DNA from: Patescibacteria group bacterium
GTDB lineage: Bacteria > Patescibacteriota > Microgenomatia > UBA1406
Length of the DNA: 64,000 bases
Direction of reading: 5' to 3'
Assembly (NCBI GenBank): GCA_041665145.1
Contig: JBAYJK010000001.1
Coordinates: 165,629 to 229,628, forward strand
A model generated the notes under the pieces. It was not told the origin of the DNA. It did no database searches and saw only the letters and a program-made list of their open reading frames with translations. The position numbers were made by a program, and so were the translations under genes. Every line of letters starts with the position of its first letter. Positions within the stretch are counted from its first letter, which is position 1. Shown in pieces: positions 26,853-36,294 of this stretch.

Positions 26853-26855
26853 ATG

Positions 26856-26864
26856 TGATATAAT
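26856..26864 (+). promoter_or_regulatory. Extended -10 promoter (TGaTATAAT) for the GNAT-M20 unit
   Basis: TG at 26856-26857 and TATAAT at 26859-26864, directly after the PBP1A stop and 6 nt before ATG 26871. Confidence 0.5.
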
Positions 26865-26870
26865 GCTTTC

Positions 26871-26924
26871 ATGTTCTGGAAAACCGTAAACACTATCGCT
26901 ACCTCACTCATCCGTAGGCGCTAA
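26871..26924 (+). CDS. Candidate leaderless 17-codon upstream ORF (MFWKTVNTIATSLIRRR)
   Basis: The ATG lies 6 nt after the -10 box, the same geometry as the validated gene starts in this window. A 65-nt pyrimidine-rich leader follows before the ATG at 26990. Confidence 0.3.
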   Translation: MFWKTVNTIATSLIRRR

Positions 26925-26989
26925 GCCTCTATCCTCCCTCCTTTTCCATAAACAATCTTTCTTTTTCTTTTACAAATTAACGTATTACT

Positions 26990-27607
26990 ATGAAAATCGA
27001 ACATGCATATGTGCCTGTACCAGCAGGACTACAGCCTTGGCAGATTGAGCCGGGGTTACTTTCAGTGTTTAACAATCAAGCCGCTATTCCGGTCAGCAAC
27101 AATCTGTCTATCGCCAGGCCGTTAGTGCAACATACAGATAATATTCTGGCACTTCTTAATGGTGAGGCTGCCCTTGTCCCCGTGCAAGGGGCGGAGATTG
27201 CGCAGACCATTGCAGCCGGTCTGAACCTTATCGCGTACGATCATGCGGCAGGTGCGGTTGTCGGGTACCAATCGATTGGTCTCTGGAATCAACTAGGCCT
27301 GCTTGAATTACGGTCGGCAAAGGTTTTGCCGAACTACCGGGGTAACGGGCTCAACACCGTTATGAAACAGCTTGCAATATCAATTGGTATGCAACAGTTT
27401 CCGGGACGGAAATTTTTGGGATTTACCGAAGCAGAGAGCAAGAGTCGGGGAATATTATCCAAACTTGGGTTCCAAGAGATGACAATGCAACAAGTTGCTG
27501 CGAAATGGCAGGAGTTGTCGTCAATTTGTCCCGACCAATGCTTTATTAAAACAGGCCATCCGTGTGGCTGTAAAGTTTATATACTTGATCCATATGAAAC
27601 CAAATAA
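26990..27607 (+). CDS. GNAT-like acetyltransferase (weak assignment)
   Basis: The C-terminal half has a VLPNYRGNGLNTVMKQL segment resembling the GNAT acetyl-CoA (R/Q-x-x-G-x-G/A) motif. Confidence 0.4.
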   Translation: MKIEHAYVPVPAGLQPWQIEPGLLSVFNNQAAIPVSNNLSIARPLVQHTDNILALLNGEAALVPVQGAEIAQTIAAGLNLIAYDHAAGAVVGYQSIGLWNQLGLLELRSAKVLPNYRGNGLNTVMKQLAISIGMQQFPGRKFLGFTEAESKSRGILSKLGFQEMTMQQVAAKWQELSSICPDQCFIKTGHPCGCKVYILDPYETK

Positions 27608-28679: not shown

Positions 28680-28704
28680 CAAGTTTAGTACGTACTAGTA
28701 TACT
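28676..28704 (+). promoter_or_regulatory. Sigma70-type promoter TTGACA-17-TATACT driving a leaderless TrpR-family gene
   Basis: TTGACA at 28676-28681, a 17-nt spacer and TATACT at 28699-28704. The ATG at 28713 is 8 nt downstream. Confidence 0.7.
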
Positions 28705-28710
28705 AGTACG
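28691..28710. promoter_or_regulatory. TrpR-type operator: perfect 20-bp palindrome CGTACTAGTATACTAGTACG
   Basis: The core GTACTAGTATACTAGTAC differs from the idealised E. coli trp operator GTACTAGTTAACTAGTAC only at the two central positions. It covers the -10 box and the predicted transcription start. Confidence 0.8.
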
Positions 28711-28712
28711 GT

Positions 28713-28973
28713 ATGAAAAACAAAGCAGAAATCGAACAGCTGGTACATGTATTACTTAATCTTAGCAACAAGGAAAGAATGGTGGATTTTCTAGAGGGTA
28801 TTTTGACACCTTCAGAACTTGAGGAAGTTGCTCATAGGCTGCAGATAGTAAAAATGTTGAAACTAGGTGTACCGCAAAAAAATATAGCTAAGGAATTGGG
28901 TGTCGGTATTGCAACCGTTACCCGGGGATCTCGTGAGTTGAAGCAAAACAGATTTTCGTATCTTTGGCAATAA
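28713..28973 (+). CDS. TrpR-family (Trp repressor / YerC-YecD-like) DNA-binding protein, 86 aa
   Basis: Has the HTH region NIAKELGVGIATVTRGSRELK (compare E. coli TrpR ELGAGIATITRGSNSLK). The preceding helix motif is LTPSELEEVAHRLQIV. Confidence 0.85.
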   Translation: MKNKAEIEQLVHVLLNLSNKERMVDFLEGILTPSELEEVAHRLQIVKMLKLGVPQKNIAKELGVGIATVTRGSRELKQNRFSYLWQ

Positions 28974-29792: not shown

Positions 29793-30710
29793 ATGTTACC
29801 AGAATTAATTATAGACACAGATGCGGGTCACGACGATATTTTGGCCATTATACTGTTGGTTAAATCAAAACTTTTTAGTATTAAGGCTATTACTACGGTG
29901 GCGGGAAATTCCTCAATTAGAAATGTAACGCGGAATGTATTTTATGTGCTTAACTTATTGCATGAGTCAAATATTCCCATATATTCGGGTTTCCCGTCAC
30001 CTCTTAAACGAAGACTTATTAAAGCAGTTATACACGGCAAAAACGGACTCTCCGGTGCGGACACATCAAAAACAAAATATCACCTGACTAAAGATGCTCC
30101 GGAACAATTAATCAAGATTGTCAAAAATTCACCCCGAAAAGTAACAATCTTGACACTCGGTCCATTATCAAATATTGCGCGGGTGTTGCAAAAAGACCAC
30201 TCAATTGCGACTTCAATAGACAAGATAGTTATGATGGGTGGGTCGTTAAACGGTTATGGTAATAAAAGCAGAGTTGCTGAATTTAATATGTTTGTAGACC
30301 CGGAAGCCGCAGATATTGTATTTAAATCACCCATTCAAAAAATATTACTTCCACTAGATGCTTGTAACGAATGCGCATTTTCTTTAAAAAGCTTTACGCA
30401 ATTACCTACATCCGTTTTGAATACAGCTATTACACAGATGATGAGAGAATATATCTCGAAGATAAAAATTCGGACAGGTATAGAAGGAACTCTGGTTTAT
30501 GATGCGCTTGCGGCTTATTACCTTATCAGTCCAACAGTCTTTACAACTCGCCTTATGGATATCGTGATTGAGAAAAGAGGAAAATATACATCCGGGATGA
30601 CAGTAGCTGAGCGGCGGTTTAGTGTTGTAAAAAAGAATAATGTGAGCGTTATAGAAAAAGTAGAGTACGAAAAGTTTAAGAGTTACTTTTTTGCTTTGTT
30701 AAAAAGTTAA
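29793..30710 (+). CDS. Inosine-uridine-preferring nucleoside hydrolase family (IUNH), copy 1
   Basis: Has the N-terminal Asp cluster LIIDTDAGHDDILAI (DxDxxxDD) and the family-typical length of 305 aa. Confidence 0.85.
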   Translation: MLPELIIDTDAGHDDILAIILLVKSKLFSIKAITTVAGNSSIRNVTRNVFYVLNLLHESNIPIYSGFPSPLKRRLIKAVIHGKNGLSGADTSKTKYHLTKDAPEQLIKIVKNSPRKVTILTLGPLSNIARVLQKDHSIATSIDKIVMMGGSLNGYGNKSRVAEFNMFVDPEAADIVFKSPIQKILLPLDACNECAFSLKSFTQLPTSVLNTAITQMMREYISKIKIRTGIEGTLVYDALAAYYLISPTVFTTRLMDIVIEKRGKYTSGMTVAERRFSVVKKNNVSVIEKVEYEKFKSYFFALLKS

Positions 30711-31014
30711 AGTAACCTCCGCACCCGCGATAAAGCCAATGGGCAACGCGGGTGACGGTTGCAGTTGATGTTTTTAATTTTTTAGCAATTTCCTTATATG
30801 AACTGCCGGTAAAAATAAGGCGGGCCATCTCGAGACGGTTGGCAAACTCTTCTATTTCAGCAGGGGTTAGCATGTCCCGCATAAGCGCTGCCGCTGCAGC
30901 CGTATCTTTCAATGAAGCAAATGCTCGTGTTAAATTTTCCTCCTTAATGTTACGGGGAGAAAAGTGCTCTGACTGTTTAAATTTACTAACAACACCTGTC
31001 CGCGCTTTTACCAT
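30676..31014 (-). CDS. TrpR-family / YerC-YecD-like regulator, copy 2 (112 aa)
   Basis: Has LTPAEIEEFANRLEMARL and the HTH EIAKKLKTSTATVTRVAHWL. The leaderless-type start has TGaTATAGT 6 nt upstream on the minus strand. Its 3' end overlaps the IUNH copy 1 gene by 35 nt (convergent). Confidence 0.8.
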   Translation of the reverse strand: MVKARTGVVSKFKQSEHFSPRNIKEENLTRAFASLKDTAAAAALMRDMLTPAEIEEFANRLEMARLIFTGSSYKEIAKKLKTSTATVTRVAHWLYRGCGGYFNFLTKQKSNS

Positions 31015-31033
31015 ATTTCTACTATATCACAGT

Positions 31034-31061
31034 CACTCCATTTAATTGTTTAAATGGAGTG
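31034..31061. promoter_or_regulatory. Candidate operator: perfect 12-bp inverted repeat CACTCCATTTAA-N4-TTAAATGGAGTG
   Basis: It sits between the divergent promoters of the TrpR-family copy 2 gene and the PRT-HAD operon, and abuts the plus-strand -35 box. Confidence 0.65.
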
Positions 31062-31062
31062 C

Positions 31063-31091
31063 TTGACATCAATGTATTAATGTGATAATAT
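31063..31091 (+). promoter_or_regulatory. Promoter TTGACA-17-TAATAT with TG extension
   Basis: TTGACA at 31063-31068, a 17-nt spacer, TG at 31083-31084 and TAATAT at 31086-31091. Confidence 0.7.
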
Positions 31092-31100
31092 GTTGAAGTC

Positions 31101-31169
31101 ATGAATATTTTACGCAAAAATATAGTTAGTCAAGAAATGCATCATAGCCCCACTCATTCGGGGCAATAA
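31101..31169 (+). CDS. Candidate 22-codon leader peptide MNILRKNIVSQEMHHSPTHSGQ
   Basis: The ATG is 9 nt after the -10 box. The His codons at 31140-31145 immediately precede hairpin arm 1. The stop at 31167-31169 lies just past arm 2. Confidence 0.35.
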   Translation: MNILRKNIVSQEMHHSPTHSGQ

Positions 31170-31198
31170 ATTTACCGCAACAAAATAGAAATTTATCA

Positions 31199-31220
31199 CC
31201 CCGCCAATGGCGGGGTTTTT
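31199..31220 (+). terminator. Leader terminator/attenuator hairpin CCCCGCC-aat-GGCGGGG + T5
   Basis: A 7-bp GC stem is followed by TTTTT, 36 nt upstream of ATG 31257. An alternative pairing of CGGGG (31159-31163) with CCCCG (31199-31203) is possible. Confidence 0.6.
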
Positions 31221-31256
31221 AGTGGGTTAAAACATTAATAATTAAAACAAAAAAAC

Positions 31257-32840
31257 ATGAAACCAGAAATACCAAAGTACATATTGACTGATGATAGCCG
31301 GGCACTTTTCTCTAAGTTAAACGGAGGAGAAGACATTATTGAAGATAGAGTATTTAACCAGGCTGCATCAAAATATTTTGCGATCATTAATCAGCAAATC
31401 GAGCAGGCATTTGATGGGCCACTGAAGATAGTTGGGGAAACGGAAAGAAGAATTGAAAGCCGACTGCAAAGCAGGGTTCGCTCCATTCTGAAATCGGATC
31501 AGAATGTAGTCTGTATTTGTCTGGACCGGTTTCTCTTCGCTGATTTTGATAAAGACCAGACCTTTGCTGACAGGTTTTTTAGATTTAGTACGTGTCGGAC
31601 TATTGACGGACGAAAAGAACCTCGACAAGGAAATCCTTCGTTTGCAGACCAAATTCAGAACTTGCTGAGAAGCATTCCCGATATTAGAAATAGGAAGGTG
31701 GTTGTCGTCGATGACGGTCTGTTTTCTGGCGGTACTATTAATGATTTCCTGATGTTACTCAAAAGTAACGGGATTGAAATAAATCTGGAAAAAATAATCG
31801 GATACATGGGTCCCCGATCGGTCATGAAAGCTTCAGACAGAAAAACTGAAATCCTGCAGCCCATAGACAATTTATTTGAATGGGTGGATGTGCGTGATTT
31901 TAGCCCGCTTGGAGGTAAAAAACTAAATGCCAGTGCCAATAATATGGTAACCACATCAATCCCATATTTATACCCATGGAGTGAGGGAAGTGCGGCAACA
32001 CTCGATATGTCTCCCGCATTTTTTGATACCAGTATCGCGATTATGAAAGGATTCAGACAATTAGTAGTAACGTACGAACTTTTGCGAAATACCAAATTAA
32101 GGTTCAGAGATTTGATTAAGGCCGGTTACCCTTTACCAACCGATAAAGAAAAGACTGTTCCCATCTCAATTAATGACACTGTTACCGATTATTTGGATCG
32201 TTGTATTGGTTTGGTGGAACAAGAGAAAAATAGAAAAGTGGTTATTTGCGACATGGATGGAACGTTTTACCAGCTTGATGGTAAAGGAGGTGGTTATCAA
32301 AATTCTAAGCTAGAGTTAGCAGTACAAACCAATGCCTTATTATTTATACAACGTAGAGAGAAATGCACACCCGATCAAGCACAGTTAATATTTTCTAGAG
32401 CCCAACAAGATCCAGTGGGGGCAAGTTTGTTCTTAGCGGAGAAATATGGAATTTCCCGTACAGATTATTTTAATGAAGTCTGGAATATCGATCCTGCTGG
32501 AATAGTTGTTAATTACGAAGTTGCAACTGGGTCGTTGTGCCAGTTTAAAGGAAAGTACCCGGGGGTGAAACTAGTTTTATTAACGTCAGCTCCCAGAGTT
32601 TGGGCTGAAAAAGTTTTAAAATTCTTGGGTATCAGGGAGCAATTTGAGCTTATATATACCGGAGAACAATTTGGGTCAAAAACAGAAGTTTTTGCACTGC
32701 TAGCTGGTCGTTATAAACCGGAAAACATGCTGTCTATTGGTGATCAGCAGGCAACTGATATTGAACCAGCTCAACAATTGGGAATGAGCACTCTCGTAAT
32801 TAATAGCCCCGACGAAGTTAGTAGAATATTACAATTATGA
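31257..32840 (+). CDS. Fusion protein: type I phosphoribosyltransferase-like N-domain + HAD-superfamily hydrolase C-domain
   Basis: Has the PRPP-binding motif KVVVVDDGLFSGGTI. HAD motif I is VVICDMDGTF, motif II is LLTSAP and motif III/IV is SIGDQQATD. Confidence 0.7.
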   Translation: MKPEIPKYILTDDSRALFSKLNGGEDIIEDRVFNQAASKYFAIINQQIEQAFDGPLKIVGETERRIESRLQSRVRSILKSDQNVVCICLDRFLFADFDKDQTFADRFFRFSTCRTIDGRKEPRQGNPSFADQIQNLLRSIPDIRNRKVVVVDDGLFSGGTINDFLMLLKSNGIEINLEKIIGYMGPRSVMKASDRKTEILQPIDNLFEWVDVRDFSPLGGKKLNASANNMVTTSIPYLYPWSEGSAATLDMSPAFFDTSIAIMKGFRQLVVTYELLRNTKLRFRDLIKAGYPLPTDKEKTVPISINDTVTDYLDRCIGLVEQEKNRKVVICDMDGTFYQLDGKGGGYQNSKLELAVQTNALLFIQRREKCTPDQAQLIFSRAQQDPVGASLFLAEKYGISRTDYFNEVWNIDPAGIVVNYEVATGSLCQFKGKYPGVKLVLLTSAPRVWAEKVLKFLGIREQFELIYTGEQFGSKTEVFALLAGRYKPENMLSIGDQQATDIEPAQQLGMSTLVINSPDEVSRILQL

Positions 32841-33745
32841 ATCAAATAATCATTGATACAGATCCGGGAGTTGACGATGCCTTAGCGATCGCCCTAGCTT
32901 GTCTTTCAAAACTGAATGTGGTCGCTCTGACAACGGTTTATGGTAATGTCAATATTGCCGATTCAACTCGCAATGCACTGACGATATTGTCAGTCATTAA
33001 TAAAAAAGTTTCCGTATACCAAGGGGCGAGTAAACCTTTGATAAATAATGCGATCAAGGCGCAATCTCACGGAGAAAAAGGATTGGGTGGATTCGCAACC
33101 AAACTTAATTGGCAAAAAAGCCGGCGTAGTGCACGAAAATACTTGGAAGATACCTTTGGCTCAGCAGCGGATACGTCTATTACGCTTGTATGTATTGGTC
33201 CTGCAACTAACATTGCCAAATTATTTATTGCCAATCCTCAATCTGTAACAAAAATAAAAGACCTCGTGATTTTAGGTGGGGTATTTAACGAAAAAGGGAA
33301 TATGTCTCAATATTCCGAGTTTAATGCTATCAATGACCCTGAAGCATTAAAAATAGTTTTAAATGCCAATTGCAATAAGGTGCTGATACCTATAAACATT
33401 TGCAGGAAGGTTGTCTTTAAAAAAAGTGATTTTAATAAACTAATAAATAAGAAATTACAGCGATCTTTTGGCGCTATTGCCGATGCTTATATCAACTATT
33501 ATACCTCTGGAAGTAAATATGGTCAGTTTACCGGTGGAGTAATGTACGATTTGCTCACTGTTGTCTATCTTCTAGAGCCGAAGTTATTTAAAACTATAGA
33601 TGCAAATGTAAATGTCATCACAAGATTGGGCCCAATGTACGGTAGGACCATAATAAAGAAAATAGGAAAAGTGAATTGCCGCGTCGTCAGCGAAATTAAG
33701 CCAAGAAAAGTAAAGCAAGTATTTTTTAACGTTTTAAATAAATAA
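32837..33745 (+). CDS. Inosine-uridine-preferring nucleoside hydrolase family (IUNH), copy 2
   Basis: Has IIIDTDPGVDDALAI. Its start overlaps the stop of the upstream gene (ATGA). Confidence 0.85.
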   Translation: MNQIIIDTDPGVDDALAIALACLSKLNVVALTTVYGNVNIADSTRNALTILSVINKKVSVYQGASKPLINNAIKAQSHGEKGLGGFATKLNWQKSRRSARKYLEDTFGSAADTSITLVCIGPATNIAKLFIANPQSVTKIKDLVILGGVFNEKGNMSQYSEFNAINDPEALKIVLNANCNKVLIPINICRKVVFKKSDFNKLINKKLQRSFGAIADAYINYYTSGSKYGQFTGGVMYDLLTVVYLLEPKLFKTIDANVNVITRLGPMYGRTIIKKIGKVNCRVVSEIKPRKVKQVFFNVLNK

Positions 33746-33747
33746 AA

Positions 33748-34839
33748 ATGGAACTAACAAAAATTCTTTCTAAGCTAATCACAATTCCTTCTTTTGTCGA
33801 TGAGAAAAACAACGAGCAAAAACTTGCCGTTTTTATCGAAAGTTATTTGAAGGTTAATGCTCCTTGGCTTAACTTGTCGCGCCAGTATGTGGCTGAGGAC
33901 CGATGGAATATTATCGCCGGTGAAGCTAAAAACCCGGAACTGGTTTTTGTCTGTCACATGGATACGGTGCAACCTACAGGTGATACGCAAAAAATGCTCT
34001 CTCCGTCAGAAAAAGACGGGTATATCTATGGGCTTGGAGCAGCCGACATGAAAGGCGGAACTGCAGCATTGCTTGCGGCGATAAAAGCTGTTGGTCCGAC
34101 AAAAAATGTCGCATATGTGTTTGACTGCGACGAAGAATATTACTTCAAGGGAGCCAAACAGTTATTGAAAAAATGTAAGTGGAATCCCCAACTGGTTATT
34201 TGTCCCGAACCGACGGATATGGAAATCGTAAACGGTTGTCGTGGAATTATTGAGATAAAATTAGACGTAATCGGAAAAAGTGCGCATGCCGGACGGCCTG
34301 ATTTTGGAATCAATGCAATCGAAAAAGCTGTTGCTGTTATCTCGGAACTTAAGAGTAAGATAGGCGAGTTTGATGAGAAGAAACTCGGTAGAACAACAGT
34401 GAACTTAAGTAGATTGGATGGGGGGAAATTACAGAATGGACAGATAATTACCCAAGGGAATGCAGTCCCCGATGTTGCGCGCGTACTCTTGGACATACGA
34501 CCGGCAAGCAATAAATTGAATGGCGATAGAATAATAAGGATGCTTATGACTATTGCGAAAAGGAATAATGTGACGTTGTCAGGTCCGACTGTTACGATTG
34601 ATTATCCGGCATATTATTCAATTCCGAACGAATGTATTAATAGGCCATATCGAGCCAATTTAGGAAAAGGTGGTTTTTACGAAGCGGCTTTATTTTCCCG
34701 AGCCTGGCAATGTACGGCATTTACATTCGGTCCGGGTGACGCAAGTACTTCGCACAGCCCTGATGAGCGGGTAAAACTAGCTGACTTGACGAGTGTAAAG
34801 AAGGTATTCGAAAAGCTTCTATTGACATATCGTGTATAA
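33748..34839 (+). CDS. M20-family amidohydrolase (ArgE/DapE-like), copy 2
   Basis: Has CHMDTV, GAADMKGG, DCDEEY and SAHAGRP motifs. Confidence 0.8.
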   Translation: MELTKILSKLITIPSFVDEKNNEQKLAVFIESYLKVNAPWLNLSRQYVAEDRWNIIAGEAKNPELVFVCHMDTVQPTGDTQKMLSPSEKDGYIYGLGAADMKGGTAALLAAIKAVGPTKNVAYVFDCDEEYYFKGAKQLLKKCKWNPQLVICPEPTDMEIVNGCRGIIEIKLDVIGKSAHAGRPDFGINAIEKAVAVISELKSKIGEFDEKKLGRTTVNLSRLDGGKLQNGQIITQGNAVPDVARVLLDIRPASNKLNGDRIIRMLMTIAKRNNVTLSGPTVTIDYPAYYSIPNECINRPYRANLGKGGFYEAALFSRAWQCTAFTFGPGDASTSHSPDERVKLADLTSVKKVFEKLLLTYRV

Positions 34840-34853
34840 TTATCATAGTTAAA

Positions 34854-35142
34854 AGCTTTGATAGAGACCGAGTAGCCCCGACGAGTCGTGGGTGAATTAC
34901 ACTCTAGAGCTGTAAGCTGAAAAGCAAGTAAGCCGAGCCGGGTGCGCCCCGTGATAGCGCAAGAGTATGTCAGCGTAAGCCGGAGTACTCGATAATGAGC
35001 GTTTGTGCTTTTAATCGAGTCCCGCATAATGGCGGGATTTTTTTTAGCATAAACTGGAAGACAAGGTGGTACCGCGAGCATTAAGCCCTCGCCCTTGTTG
35101 TGAGTCATATTTTTATGACTGACAGGGGTGAGGGCTTTTTTT
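34854..35142 (+). promoter_or_regulatory. T-box riboswitch leader (transcriptional), minimal Stem I, probable Tyr (UAC) specifier
   Basis: The T-box sequence is GGUGGUACCGCG (35065-35076). The antiterminator has helix A1 ACAAGG/CCUUGU, a 7-nt bulge UGGUACC and helix A2 GCGAG/CUCGC. It competes with a 15-bp terminator (35084-35098 / 35122-35136) followed by a T-run. The Stem I base is a K-turn: AGC-UUU-GA (34854-34861) opposite GA-GCU (34907-34911). The specifier loop reads ACCGAGUA / GAAUUACA. TATAAT at 34835-34840 is upstream. Confidence 0.75.
35020..35045 (+). promoter_or_regulatory. Stem III-position hairpin TCCCGC-ataatg-GCGGGA followed by T8 (terminator-like)
   Basis: A 6-bp GC stem plus U8 lies inside the T-box leader. 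It belongs to the CCCGC/GCGGG hairpin family seen at 31199, 52233 and 53241. Confidence 0.55.
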
Positions 35143-35259
35143 GTGGAAATGAAACATTTTAAAAACAGATGCACAGGAAGCAGGAATTTTTATTATATTC
35201 AGCCCTTCTATGGAGGGCGATGGTTGTTTGCTTTTATAAATTGGAAATCAAAAATTACT

Positions 35260-36294
35260 ATGAAAAAACAAAAAATGTTATGGTTTCAGGATGATTTAAA
35301 GCTAGGTGCTCGTAAGTCATGTTGGCAGAGAATAGATTCCCTCACAGGAGCTCTTGTACGAGCAGTTGGTCATCCGAATATGGATCATGAAATTGTGGAT
35401 CCAAGACCACATATAAGTGCGCTTGCTGAAAAGCTCCCACGGGACGCAACATGCGTTATTGACTTAACAAATGGCCAACTTATGGGAGTGCTGTCAGGAT
35501 TATTTGAGAGCAGCACTCTTGTTACTGGTTTCCATTTGAGCAGGCTGCGAGTTGTGTCTTCGGCACGGTTGGATGGTTCAGGTTTTATGTTAAATAAGAC
35601 AGTGAGAGAATTCGCTGCCTTACCATCGCTTATTGACACCTTCCGGACAGTGATACTGGATGATGTTGGTTGGTCTGGAAGATCAGCACTTGAGGTGTGC
35701 CGACTCTTTGGTCTTCCAGTAGCACAAACCACCTTTGGGTTTGTTATGGGTAATGCCGGTGAGTTTGGTCCTTCACCGGGAGCTGTAAATTTATTGCAGA
35801 GTCTGGGAGGTCGAGTAGTTACTGGTGGTTTGGTTGCGACACCCCGTGACGACGGATTTCATGTTTCAGATTTCTGTAGCACTAATAACATTTCTCATTC
35901 CGAATTAATAGAAGCTTTGTTGGTAATTCAGAGTTTGCGAGAGCATGCTGCTCAATTTCCTGGAGAGAGCAAAGAAGTAGAAAAAAGAATAATGCAGCTT
36001 TTTAAGGAGGCTCGCGATCTGCTCTTTCCAAACGCTCTTAGTTCGACTATGATAAAAGAATTAATGCGAGAGGGAAAGGTAATTTGTATGAACGGTATAC
36101 CAAAAGATGCACTCTTTCAGACGAATCCATTAAATTGGTTACTTCCTTCTTTTGCTAAGCGTGTTCGAAGTGAAGATTTGCAACAGAATTTGGCAATTGT
36201 CATTGGCTCTTTAGATGAGTTACGGGCGATCAAAGAAGAAGGTAATGTGCAAGGAATAGAAGGTAACTTTCTAAATATGGAGATGAGACTATGA
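35260..36294 (+). CDS. PRT-like protein (degenerate PRPP motif), paralogous in layout to the N-domain of the 31257 protein
   Basis: Has TVILDDVGWSGRSALEV (hydrophobic strand, DD, small residues). The start is moved to ATG 35260 because the track ORF from 35128 runs through the T-box terminator. Confidence 0.5.
   Translation: MKKQKMLWFQDDLKLGARKSCWQRIDSLTGALVRAVGHPNMDHEIVDPRPHISALAEKLPRDATCVIDLTNGQLMGVLSGLFESSTLVTGFHLSRLRVVSSARLDGSGFMLNKTVREFAALPSLIDTFRTVILDDVGWSGRSALEVCRLFGLPVAQTTFGFVMGNAGEFGPSPGAVNLLQSLGGRVVTGGLVATPRDDGFHVSDFCSTNNISHSELIEALLVIQSLREHAAQFPGESKEVEKRIMQLFKEARDLLFPNALSSTMIKELMREGKVICMNGIPKDALFQTNPLNWLLPSFAKRVRSEDLQQNLAIVIGSLDELRAIKEEGNVQGIEGNFLNMEMRL

Follow-up and report, generated by a model that had tools for sequence, protein, structure and literature searches.

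YerC of Bacillus subtilis has been described as HisR, a TrpR-family repressor that binds DNA together with histidine (Ashniev et al. 2022, PMC9413887). Predicted HisR sites are 20-bp palindromes of the layout heptamer-N6-heptamer, with the consensus cacTTTA-N6-TAAAgtg in Firmicutes and Actinobacteria and TGTAnTAr-N4-yTnTTACA in Proteobacteria, and autoregulation was found in about half of the genomes studied (PMC9413887). Some genomes contain two hisR paralogues with diverged roles, His-leader attenuators were found only in lineages without HisR, and Patescibacteria lay outside the survey (PMC9413887). Here, we analyzed a 64,000-nt stretch of a Patescibacteria group bacterium (contig JBAYJK010000001.1, positions 165,629 to 229,628; hereafter the window), in which a minus-strand gene for a TrpR-like regulator, termed copy 2, and a divergent plus-strand operon flank a 28-bp perfect palindrome, CACTCCATTTAA-ttgt-TTAAATGGAGTG (31034..31061, strandless). 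Tentatively, and with less than even confidence, we favor the view that this palindrome is a lineage-restricted accessory HisR-type operator that exceeds the canonical box by one step of an 8-bp lattice.

Copy 2 (30676..31014, minus strand) encodes a 112-aa HisR-family regulator that matches Pfam Trp_repressor (PF01371, E = 1.7e-16) and TIGR02531 (YerC/YecD; 46.4 bits against a curated cutoff of 42.2). Its best solved relatives are the YerC-type proteins 3g1c, 3frw, and 3kor, and one source annotates it as a YerC/YecD family protein of a Patescibacteria bacterium. An earlier note on this DNA had placed copy 2 in the TrpR family, as the domain match bears out, without recognizing it as a relative of the published HisR. 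The locus shares with the published systems the families TIGR02531 and Trp_repressor, histidine-related genes in related loci, an operator next to hisR that implies autoregulation, a 20-bp box (31073-31092) that fits the published matrices, and the heptamer CACTCCA, which occurs both in the palindrome and in published predicted sites (PMC9413887). However, the published sites are 20 bp long (N6) and the palindrome 28 bp (N14), the operon here encodes salvage/peptidase-type enzymes rather than histidine biosynthesis, and HisR and His-leader attenuators, which occur there in separate lineages, are found here on one operon (PMC9413887).

The arms of the palindrome are complementary at 12 of 12 positions around a 4-nt center, as the earlier note had stated, and they end where T31033 faces C31062, with no extension possible. 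Its layout is heptamer-N14-heptamer, in which the outer heptamers CACTCCA (31034-31040) and TGGAGTG (31055-31061) enclose an interior that is merely AT-rich (TTAA-N4-TTAA); overall, the GC content is 32%. No other inverted repeat in the window combines perfect arms of 12 bp or more with a loop of up to 10 nt; under a chance model of 200 first-order Markov simulations with the window's dinucleotide make-up, the mean was 0.055 per window, and 5% of simulations contained at least one. No second occurrence of the half-site was found in the window at up to one mismatch. As single-stranded DNA, the palindrome folds with -11.2 kcal/mol (z = -6.4).

The palindrome lies between two divergent promoters. 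The operon promoter P+ (31063..31091, plus strand), recovered by a consensus promoter scan, comprises a -35 TTGACA (31063-31068), a 17-nt spacer, TG at 31083-31084, and a -10 TAATAT (31086-31091), with an inferred transcription start near 31098. The regulator promoter P- (31014..31029, minus strand) consists of a TG-extended -10, TGaTATAGT (31029..31021), followed after 6 nt by the ATG at 31014. Of 61 related loci, 44 have a TAnnnT -10 at a distance of exactly 6 nt from the regulator ATG and 40 have a TG-extended one, and because both features recur in this way, copy 2 is almost certainly expressed as a leaderless mRNA. These data support the two divergent extended -10 promoters of the earlier note, P+ through the consensus scan and P- through direct reading and the counts in related loci. 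Relative to the inferred starts, the palindrome spans -20 to -47 of P- and approximately -37 to -64 of P+; it abuts the -35 of P+ and overlaps the -35/spacer region of P-. Some relatives show a TACAAT in this place, but divergent -10 hexamers inside the palindrome were ruled out, as the arms in the window contain no TAnnnT. The same leaderless layout of an extended -10 (TGTGATATAAT), 6 nt, and an ATG occurs at 26853-26910 of the window, directly after a PBP gene, where it opens a 17-codon open reading frame (ORF; MFWKTVNTIATSLIRRR).

The likeness of the palindrome to HisR sites rests on its half-sites, its place, and its recurrence elsewhere. CACTCCA/TGGAGTG are half-sites of published predicted Actinobacteria HisR sites, several of which contain CACTCCA, including cactccaTCAAAGtggagta and cactccaCCATGAtggagta, both upstream of hisR genes (PMC9413887, supplementary file 3). 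Its position between a hisR-like gene and a divergent operon, with histidine-related operons at related loci, likewise fits HisR sites. A metagenome scan yielded 80 further loci with 44-66% identity, and in the 388 kb formed by the window and the related loci every element of the form CACTNCA...TGNAGTG has a 14-bp interval. These elements are found in the window, in L038 and L042 (CACTACA-N14-TGTAGTG in the slot of the window palindrome), in L058 (just after the operon -10), and in L023 (just after the regulator stop codon), while L022 carries a near-identical AACTACA…TGTAGTG with one mismatch at the same place as L023. The control region of L042 contains, in addition, CACTTTAATTAATTAAAGTG (2856-2875), which closely follows the operon -10 and agrees perfectly with the published HisR consensus; together with the 28-bp element at 2941-2968, it flanks the conserved box. 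Two other sequences, TACTTTATGATACTGGAGTA (L035, 3382) and CACTTCGATTAATCGAAGTG (L042, 477), lie inside ORFs and were treated as possible chance matches.

With a broader half-site, YRYTNYR, the same 388 kb contain 11 distinct perfect inverted pairs at N14 and 0-4 at every other spacing from 0 to 30, although this half-site class and the 28-mer family were defined after the data had been seen. An unconstrained control on near-gene regions gave 27 pairs at N14, 6 at N13, and 3 at N15, counts in which nested hits from long palindromes inflate the even spacings. The 28-mers added in this way carry the heptamers TGCTTTA (L057), TACTTTA (L031), TACTTCG (L026), CATTACA (L045), TGTTACA (L016), and TGTTTTA (L087), and the half-sites of the family include the published HisR forms TGCTTTA, TACTTTA, and CACTTTA. 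Altogether, ten other lineages carry heptamer-N14-heptamer 28-mers, all within approximately 200 nt of the regulator gene, and the window palindrome shares their YRYTNYR pair at N14, their AT-rich interior, and their distance of at most approximately 200 nt from a hisR-like gene. A matrix built from the ten non-window 28-mers placed the window palindrome at rank 1 of 64,000 positions, with 21.0 bits against 11.1 bits for the next match. This second match (30687-30714) lies at the 3' end of copy 2 and contains one recognizable half-site, with the heptamer TAAAGTA; it corresponds to the place of the full 28-bp palindromes in L022, L023, L026, and L087.

In addition to the post hoc definition of the family and the inflation of even spacings, several observations weigh against an accessory HisR-type operator. 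The spacer measures 14 bp rather than the 6 bp of HisR sites, and the best 20-bp frame of the palindrome reaches 0.0 bits with the published-site matrix for Bacillaceae, -5.9 for Actinobacteria, and -13.6 for Proteobacteria, the training minima of which are 11.8, 13.6, and 17.1 bits, respectively. With a matrix built from the conserved boxes of related loci, every 20-bp frame scores -18 bits or lower. These scores rule out a canonical 20-bp HisR box in any register and a copy of the conserved 20-bp box. The positions of the 28-mers vary, from upstream of the operon -35 to after the operon -10 (L058) and after the regulator stop codon (L022, L023, L026, L087), and one protein would need to accept heptamers of both the TGTATTA and the CACTCCA type. 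The palindrome is also not conserved at orthologous loci; L038 and L042 alone have a related 28-mer in its slot. In the alignment, it is missing from L004, L005, and L006, the nearest distinct orthologous loci (78-80% identity), which show a 23-nt gap directly after GTCAAG, despite recognition helices nearly identical to that of copy 2. The helix STATVTRVAHWLYxGCGGY is practically invariant among orthologues with 55% to 100% identity, so a cognate operator should be conserved, and the palindrome is not. Non-conservation in related genomes, which the earlier note had named as grounds for abandoning an operator of copy 2, is therefore partly borne out by these three loci. Because the palindrome departs from HisR operators in its spacer and conservation and agrees with them in half-site and location, we do not file it as a canonical HisR operator.

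The difference in half-sites may suggest that the palindrome is instead read by another protein, which would provide a second input to P-. This could be a further TrpR/HisR paralogue whose specificity resembles that in Firmicutes or Actinobacteria, or an unrelated dimeric regulator with its gene outside the window. CACTCCA differs from the heptamers of the conserved box (TGTATTA and CATGTTA), and the palindrome scores very poorly with the box matrix. The Firmicutes/Actinobacteria and proteobacterial consensuses belong to different HisR lineages, and some genomes have two diverged hisR paralogues (PMC9413887). However, no third TrpR-like gene is present in the window or in the loci carrying 28-mers, the 28-mers track the copy 2 gene, and 28 bp is the native two-box lattice length of the conserved operator. 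The only other TrpR-like paralogue in the window, copy 1 (28713-28973, 86 aa), assigned by its family profile and its operator, has a clearly different site of its own, a textbook, near-perfect E. coli-type CTAG trp operator, CGTACTAGTATACTAGTACG (28691-28710). A different protein as the reader of the palindrome is thus distinctly unlikely in our assessment. Across loci, the cases were too few to follow co-variation of heptamer type and recognition helix.

The two paralogues of the window appear to belong to different known systems, copy 1 being TrpR-type, as its CTAG operator suggests, and copy 2 HisR-type. The recognition helices had been read correctly in the earlier note as IATVTRGSRE (copy 1) and TATVTRVAHW (copy 2), and its proposal that the two copies differ in specificity agrees with the CTAG operator of copy 1. 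That operator overlaps the -10 of copy 1 (TATACT, 28699-28704), from which the ATG at 28713 is separated by 8 nt, so that the transcript would be almost without a leader.

The element that is conserved between the two promoters is a 20-bp HisR-type box, TGTATTAATGTGATAATATG (31073..31092, strandless), which lies 12 bp from the palindrome, covers the spacer and -10 of P+, and is likely the primary operator. Two matrices place it at the top of the window, that of published Bacillaceae HisR sites (12.4 bits) and the one derived from related loci (21.2 bits); under the proteobacterial matrix (15.1 bits) it comes second, behind the copy 1 operator. Of 74 non-redundant related loci, 65, some of them from other phyla, have a strong 20-bp box with the consensus CATGTTAACATGTTAACATG in the region upstream of this gene. 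Most Patescibacteria loci have TTGTCAAG, the operon -35 in reverse complement, directly adjoining the box; in other phyla, the box overlaps the -10 of the regulator itself. The box thus has the published-matrix score, the conservation, and the promoter overlap of a HisR operator. Where related loci have a second strong box, its offset is always 8 bp (29 and 35 of 62) or 16 bp, so the native operators are lattices of at least 28 bp with an 8-bp step. The string TGTGATA, noted earlier in both promoters, is indeed common to them and in P+ forms part of this box, the only part of it that the earlier note had seen. At P-, the 20-mer 31012-31031 resembles the conserved box weakly, scoring 1.3 bits (seventh in the window). 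The third-best window match to the box matrix (12.7 bits), CAAATTAACGTATTACTATG at 26973-26992, overlaps the ATG of an unannotated 205-aa ORF (26990-27607) upstream of a PepT-like M20 peptidase and copy 1, and may mark a second regulon member.

The conserved box bears directly on the version of the earlier note, in which the palindrome is the principal cognate operator of copy 2 and alone represses both the regulator's own promoter and the operon. The central position between the promoters, in contact with the -35 of P+ and over the -35/spacer region of P-, and the HisR-like heptamers would suit such a role. However, the palindrome is not conserved, whereas the box is present in 65/74 loci over the -10 and spacer of P+; the published HisR matrices pick the box and not the palindrome; and approximately -37 to -64, upstream of the -35, is a weak position for repression of P+. 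We therefore consider a sole operator very doubtful. The proposal that copy 2 gates the operon through the palindrome is not supported in view of the conserved element, which the earlier note had overlooked. As a candidate operator of copy 2, the palindrome retains its operator-like format, its HisR half-sites, and its membership in a recurrent 28-bp family, without being the conserved element of the locus.

Comparison with the closest loci suggests how the palindrome arose. Three contigs from other samples have the same sequence throughout the intergenic region. The block ATATTATCAC(A/G)TTAATACATTGATGTCAAG is preserved almost unchanged in L004, L005, and L006, as are the leader's hairpin and terminator, and the GTCAAG/TTGACA block and the 20-bp box are kept in orthologous loci. 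Against this background, the palindrome looks like a recent net 23-bp insertion into an otherwise conserved region. The box starts at -55 to -57 relative to the regulator ATG in these three loci and at -78 in the window, a difference that equals the insertion; on P-, the box accordingly spans -36 to -55 in the closest relatives and -59 to -78 in the window. The slot, bounded by GTCAAG and the regulator -10, varies in length, and GTCAA lies 16-32 nt from the ATG in most loci. In L013 (approximately 2900-2980), it is filled by an 8-nt unit, CGAAGCTC, repeated in tandem about eight times with the 8-bp period of the operator lattice. In L058 (2828-2925), and also in L067 and L030, an insertion of approximately 100 nt that contains a GC-rich hairpin (…CTCCTCCGACGCGAGGACGTAGACCTCGGGAGGAG…) and another copy of GTCAAG lies in the same slot, between the operator and the regulator promoter.

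An insertion of this kind could also be neutral or structural, produced for example by template switching or a hairpin replication error and read by no protein. Its effects would then be limited to moving the box 23 bp away from P- and, at most, to cruciform extrusion in negatively supercoiled DNA between the divergent promoters. The absence of the palindrome from the closest relatives, where its flanks are conserved nearly base for base, is consistent with such an origin, as are the variable length of the slot and the unrelated insertions it has taken up (the repeat in L013 and the element in L058, L067, and L030). Moreover, P- has a TG-extended -10 and needs no -35, and perfect arms with an AT-rich center suit a cruciform. 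However, chance leaves unexplained why the same 7-N14-7 format and related heptamers stand beside the same gene in independent lineages and why the heptamers equal published HisR half-sites, and the element occurs once in 64 kb and in none of the other collections scanned. On these grounds, a neutral insertion appears fairly unlikely.

The palindrome might alternatively act as an RNA hairpin, a 5' stabilizer or terminator, rather than as a DNA site. The 28-mers of L022, L023, L026, and L087 directly follow the regulator stop codon, and those of L058 and L042 would be transcribed as part of the leader, at its 5' end, which fits an RNA function. However, the window palindrome lies upstream of both inferred starts, preceding the -35 of P+ and the conserved leaderless -10 of P-; it is not followed by a T-run and matches no Rfam family, making this role extremely improbable. 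An intrinsic terminator was ruled out by the 32% GC, the missing T-run, and the location between two promoters. Rfam searches of the whole window at gathering thresholds, and of 30950-31300 with permissive E-values, returned nothing relevant to the palindrome or the leader.

Searches beyond the window returned no related element. An exact-pattern scan for ACTCCATTTAA-N2-6-TTAAATGGAGT across 185,579 species genomes, a collection from which the source genome is evidently absent, gave a single match, in a Chlamydiia genome, which is a terminator hairpin after an ORF and represents an unrelated chance match, and a degenerate pattern of the 28-mer family gave zero matches in the viral contigs scanned. 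In a check for repeated elements, the palindrome was present in one copy in 64 kb, with no related copy in genome or viral collections. It resembles REP/BIME or MITE-like repeats in being a short, perfect intergenic palindrome with a patchy distribution among relatives, but differs from them in being single-copy in 64 kb and in that the 28-mers always stand next to one particular gene. A dif/Xer-type 28-bp site, considered for its length and AT-rich center, was set aside since the resemblance is weak and the element is tied to one gene in many lineages, and an NrdR box fits neither in half-site nor in length.

E. coli TrpR provides a precedent for operators longer than a single box, as tandem dimers of this repressor reportedly bind on an 8-bp register. 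The present system shares with it the protein fold family and palindromic operators on an 8-bp lattice, the palindrome being one step longer than a single box. The half-site of TrpR is CTAG-based, in contrast to the palindrome, in which only the outer heptamers are consensus-like. To our knowledge, no HisR has been shown to bind in tandem. In classical repressor systems, auxiliary operators (lac O2/O3, gal OE/OI) are weaker or non-canonical sites near a primary operator; they lie on either side of it or at a distance of a few hundred bp, within or behind a gene, and the positions of the 28-mers vary across lineages in a similar manner. However, looping or oligomerization of the regulator beyond a dimer forms no part of the evidence at this locus.

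The operon (31257..34839, plus strand) encodes a PRT-HAD fusion (31257-32840), a nucleoside hydrolase (32837-33745), and an M20 ArgE/DapE-type deacylase or peptidase (33748-34839). In related loci, the genes after the promoter include HisG (6), HisG_C (4), histidinol dehydrogenase (3), HisA/F (3), aromatic/histidine ammonia-lyase of the hutH-like type (5), M15 peptidases (8), GNAT acetyltransferases (8), and M20 peptidases. Upstream, copy 2 (minus strand) and a nucleoside hydrolase gene (plus strand) overlap convergently at their 3' ends by 35 nt (30676-30710). Two ORFs beside the salvage/peptidase genes, 35128-36294 (388 aa) and 26990-27607 (205 aa), have no Pfam or NCBIfam match.

The 165-nt leader of the operon contains a 22-codon ORF, MNILRKNIVSQEMHHSPTHSGQ (31101..31169, plus strand), with tandem His codons at 31140-31145. 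It is followed by a putative attenuator RNA (31147..31221, plus strand), delineated from inverted repeats, a terminator scan, and the minimum-energy fold. Hairpin 1:2 pairs GCCCC (31147-31151) with GGGGC (31160-31164), the alternative antiterminator 2:3 pairs 31159-31173 with 31189-31203, and the terminator 3:4 spans 31198-31216 and is followed by TTTTT; hairpin 1:2 together with the terminator constitutes the minimum-energy fold. A small ORF with HH or HHH occurs just before the hairpin in 42 of 65 related loci, and the CAT/CAC changes in the leader ORF among L004-L006 are synonymous. The region therefore looks like a His-His leader-peptide attenuator that would form a second control layer on the operon. 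It resembles the E. coli his and trp leaders (RF00513-type) in its short ORF with tandem regulatory codons and its 1:2, 2:3, and 3:4 pairings, but differs in having only 2-3 His codons and no Rfam family match. The HisR-type box and the His leader attenuator appear to be combined on one operon, a dual control resembling that of the E. coli trp operon, where repressor and attenuator likewise act on one operon.

From these elements, a regulatory scheme can be proposed. Histidine-bound, HisR-like copy 2 would bind the box at 31073-31092, and because the box covers the spacer and -10 of P+, this binding would shut the operon off. In the closest relatives, the box at -36 to -55 of the leaderless P- probably also autoregulates the regulator. 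In this genome, the 23-bp insertion would have shifted the box away from P-, to -59 to -78, and the palindrome, at -20 to -47 of P-, may restore or strengthen autorepression, acting mainly on the regulator's own promoter. Through its contact with the operon -35, it may also bind its protein cooperatively with the primary box, while the His-His leader peptide, with its terminator and antiterminator, would attenuate the same operon as a second layer. Of this scheme, the sequences, their pattern of conservation, the protein family of copy 2, and the histidine genes of related operons are observed, whereas the transcription starts, the protein that reads the palindrome, and the direction of any effect are inferred.

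A more general proposal, which we regard as speculative and somewhat unlikely to hold as a whole, is that HisR-like repressors of Patescibacteria use operators on an 8-bp lattice, with a 28-bp heptamer-N14-heptamer bound by two staggered dimers as the functional unit. Lineages would repeatedly gain additional 28-bp sites around the hisR promoter that retune autoregulation, the window palindrome being one recent gain. The HisR box and the His attenuator of the same control region would together place salvage/peptidase genes under dual control of the trp-operon kind in an organism that is probably unable to make histidine.

Collectively, the comparisons locate the likely real operator of the operon (31073-31092) and extend the published HisR regulon concept to Patescibacteria. 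Should the 28-bp format prove to be a true mode of binding, it would illustrate how a TrpR-fold repressor draws on an 8-bp lattice for stronger or accessory sites, and if the proposed history is true, the locus would be a natural case of promoter rewiring by a 23-bp insertion. The presence of a HisR box and a His leader before non-biosynthetic genes may further hint at how reduced, auxotrophic bacteria sense their histidine supply.

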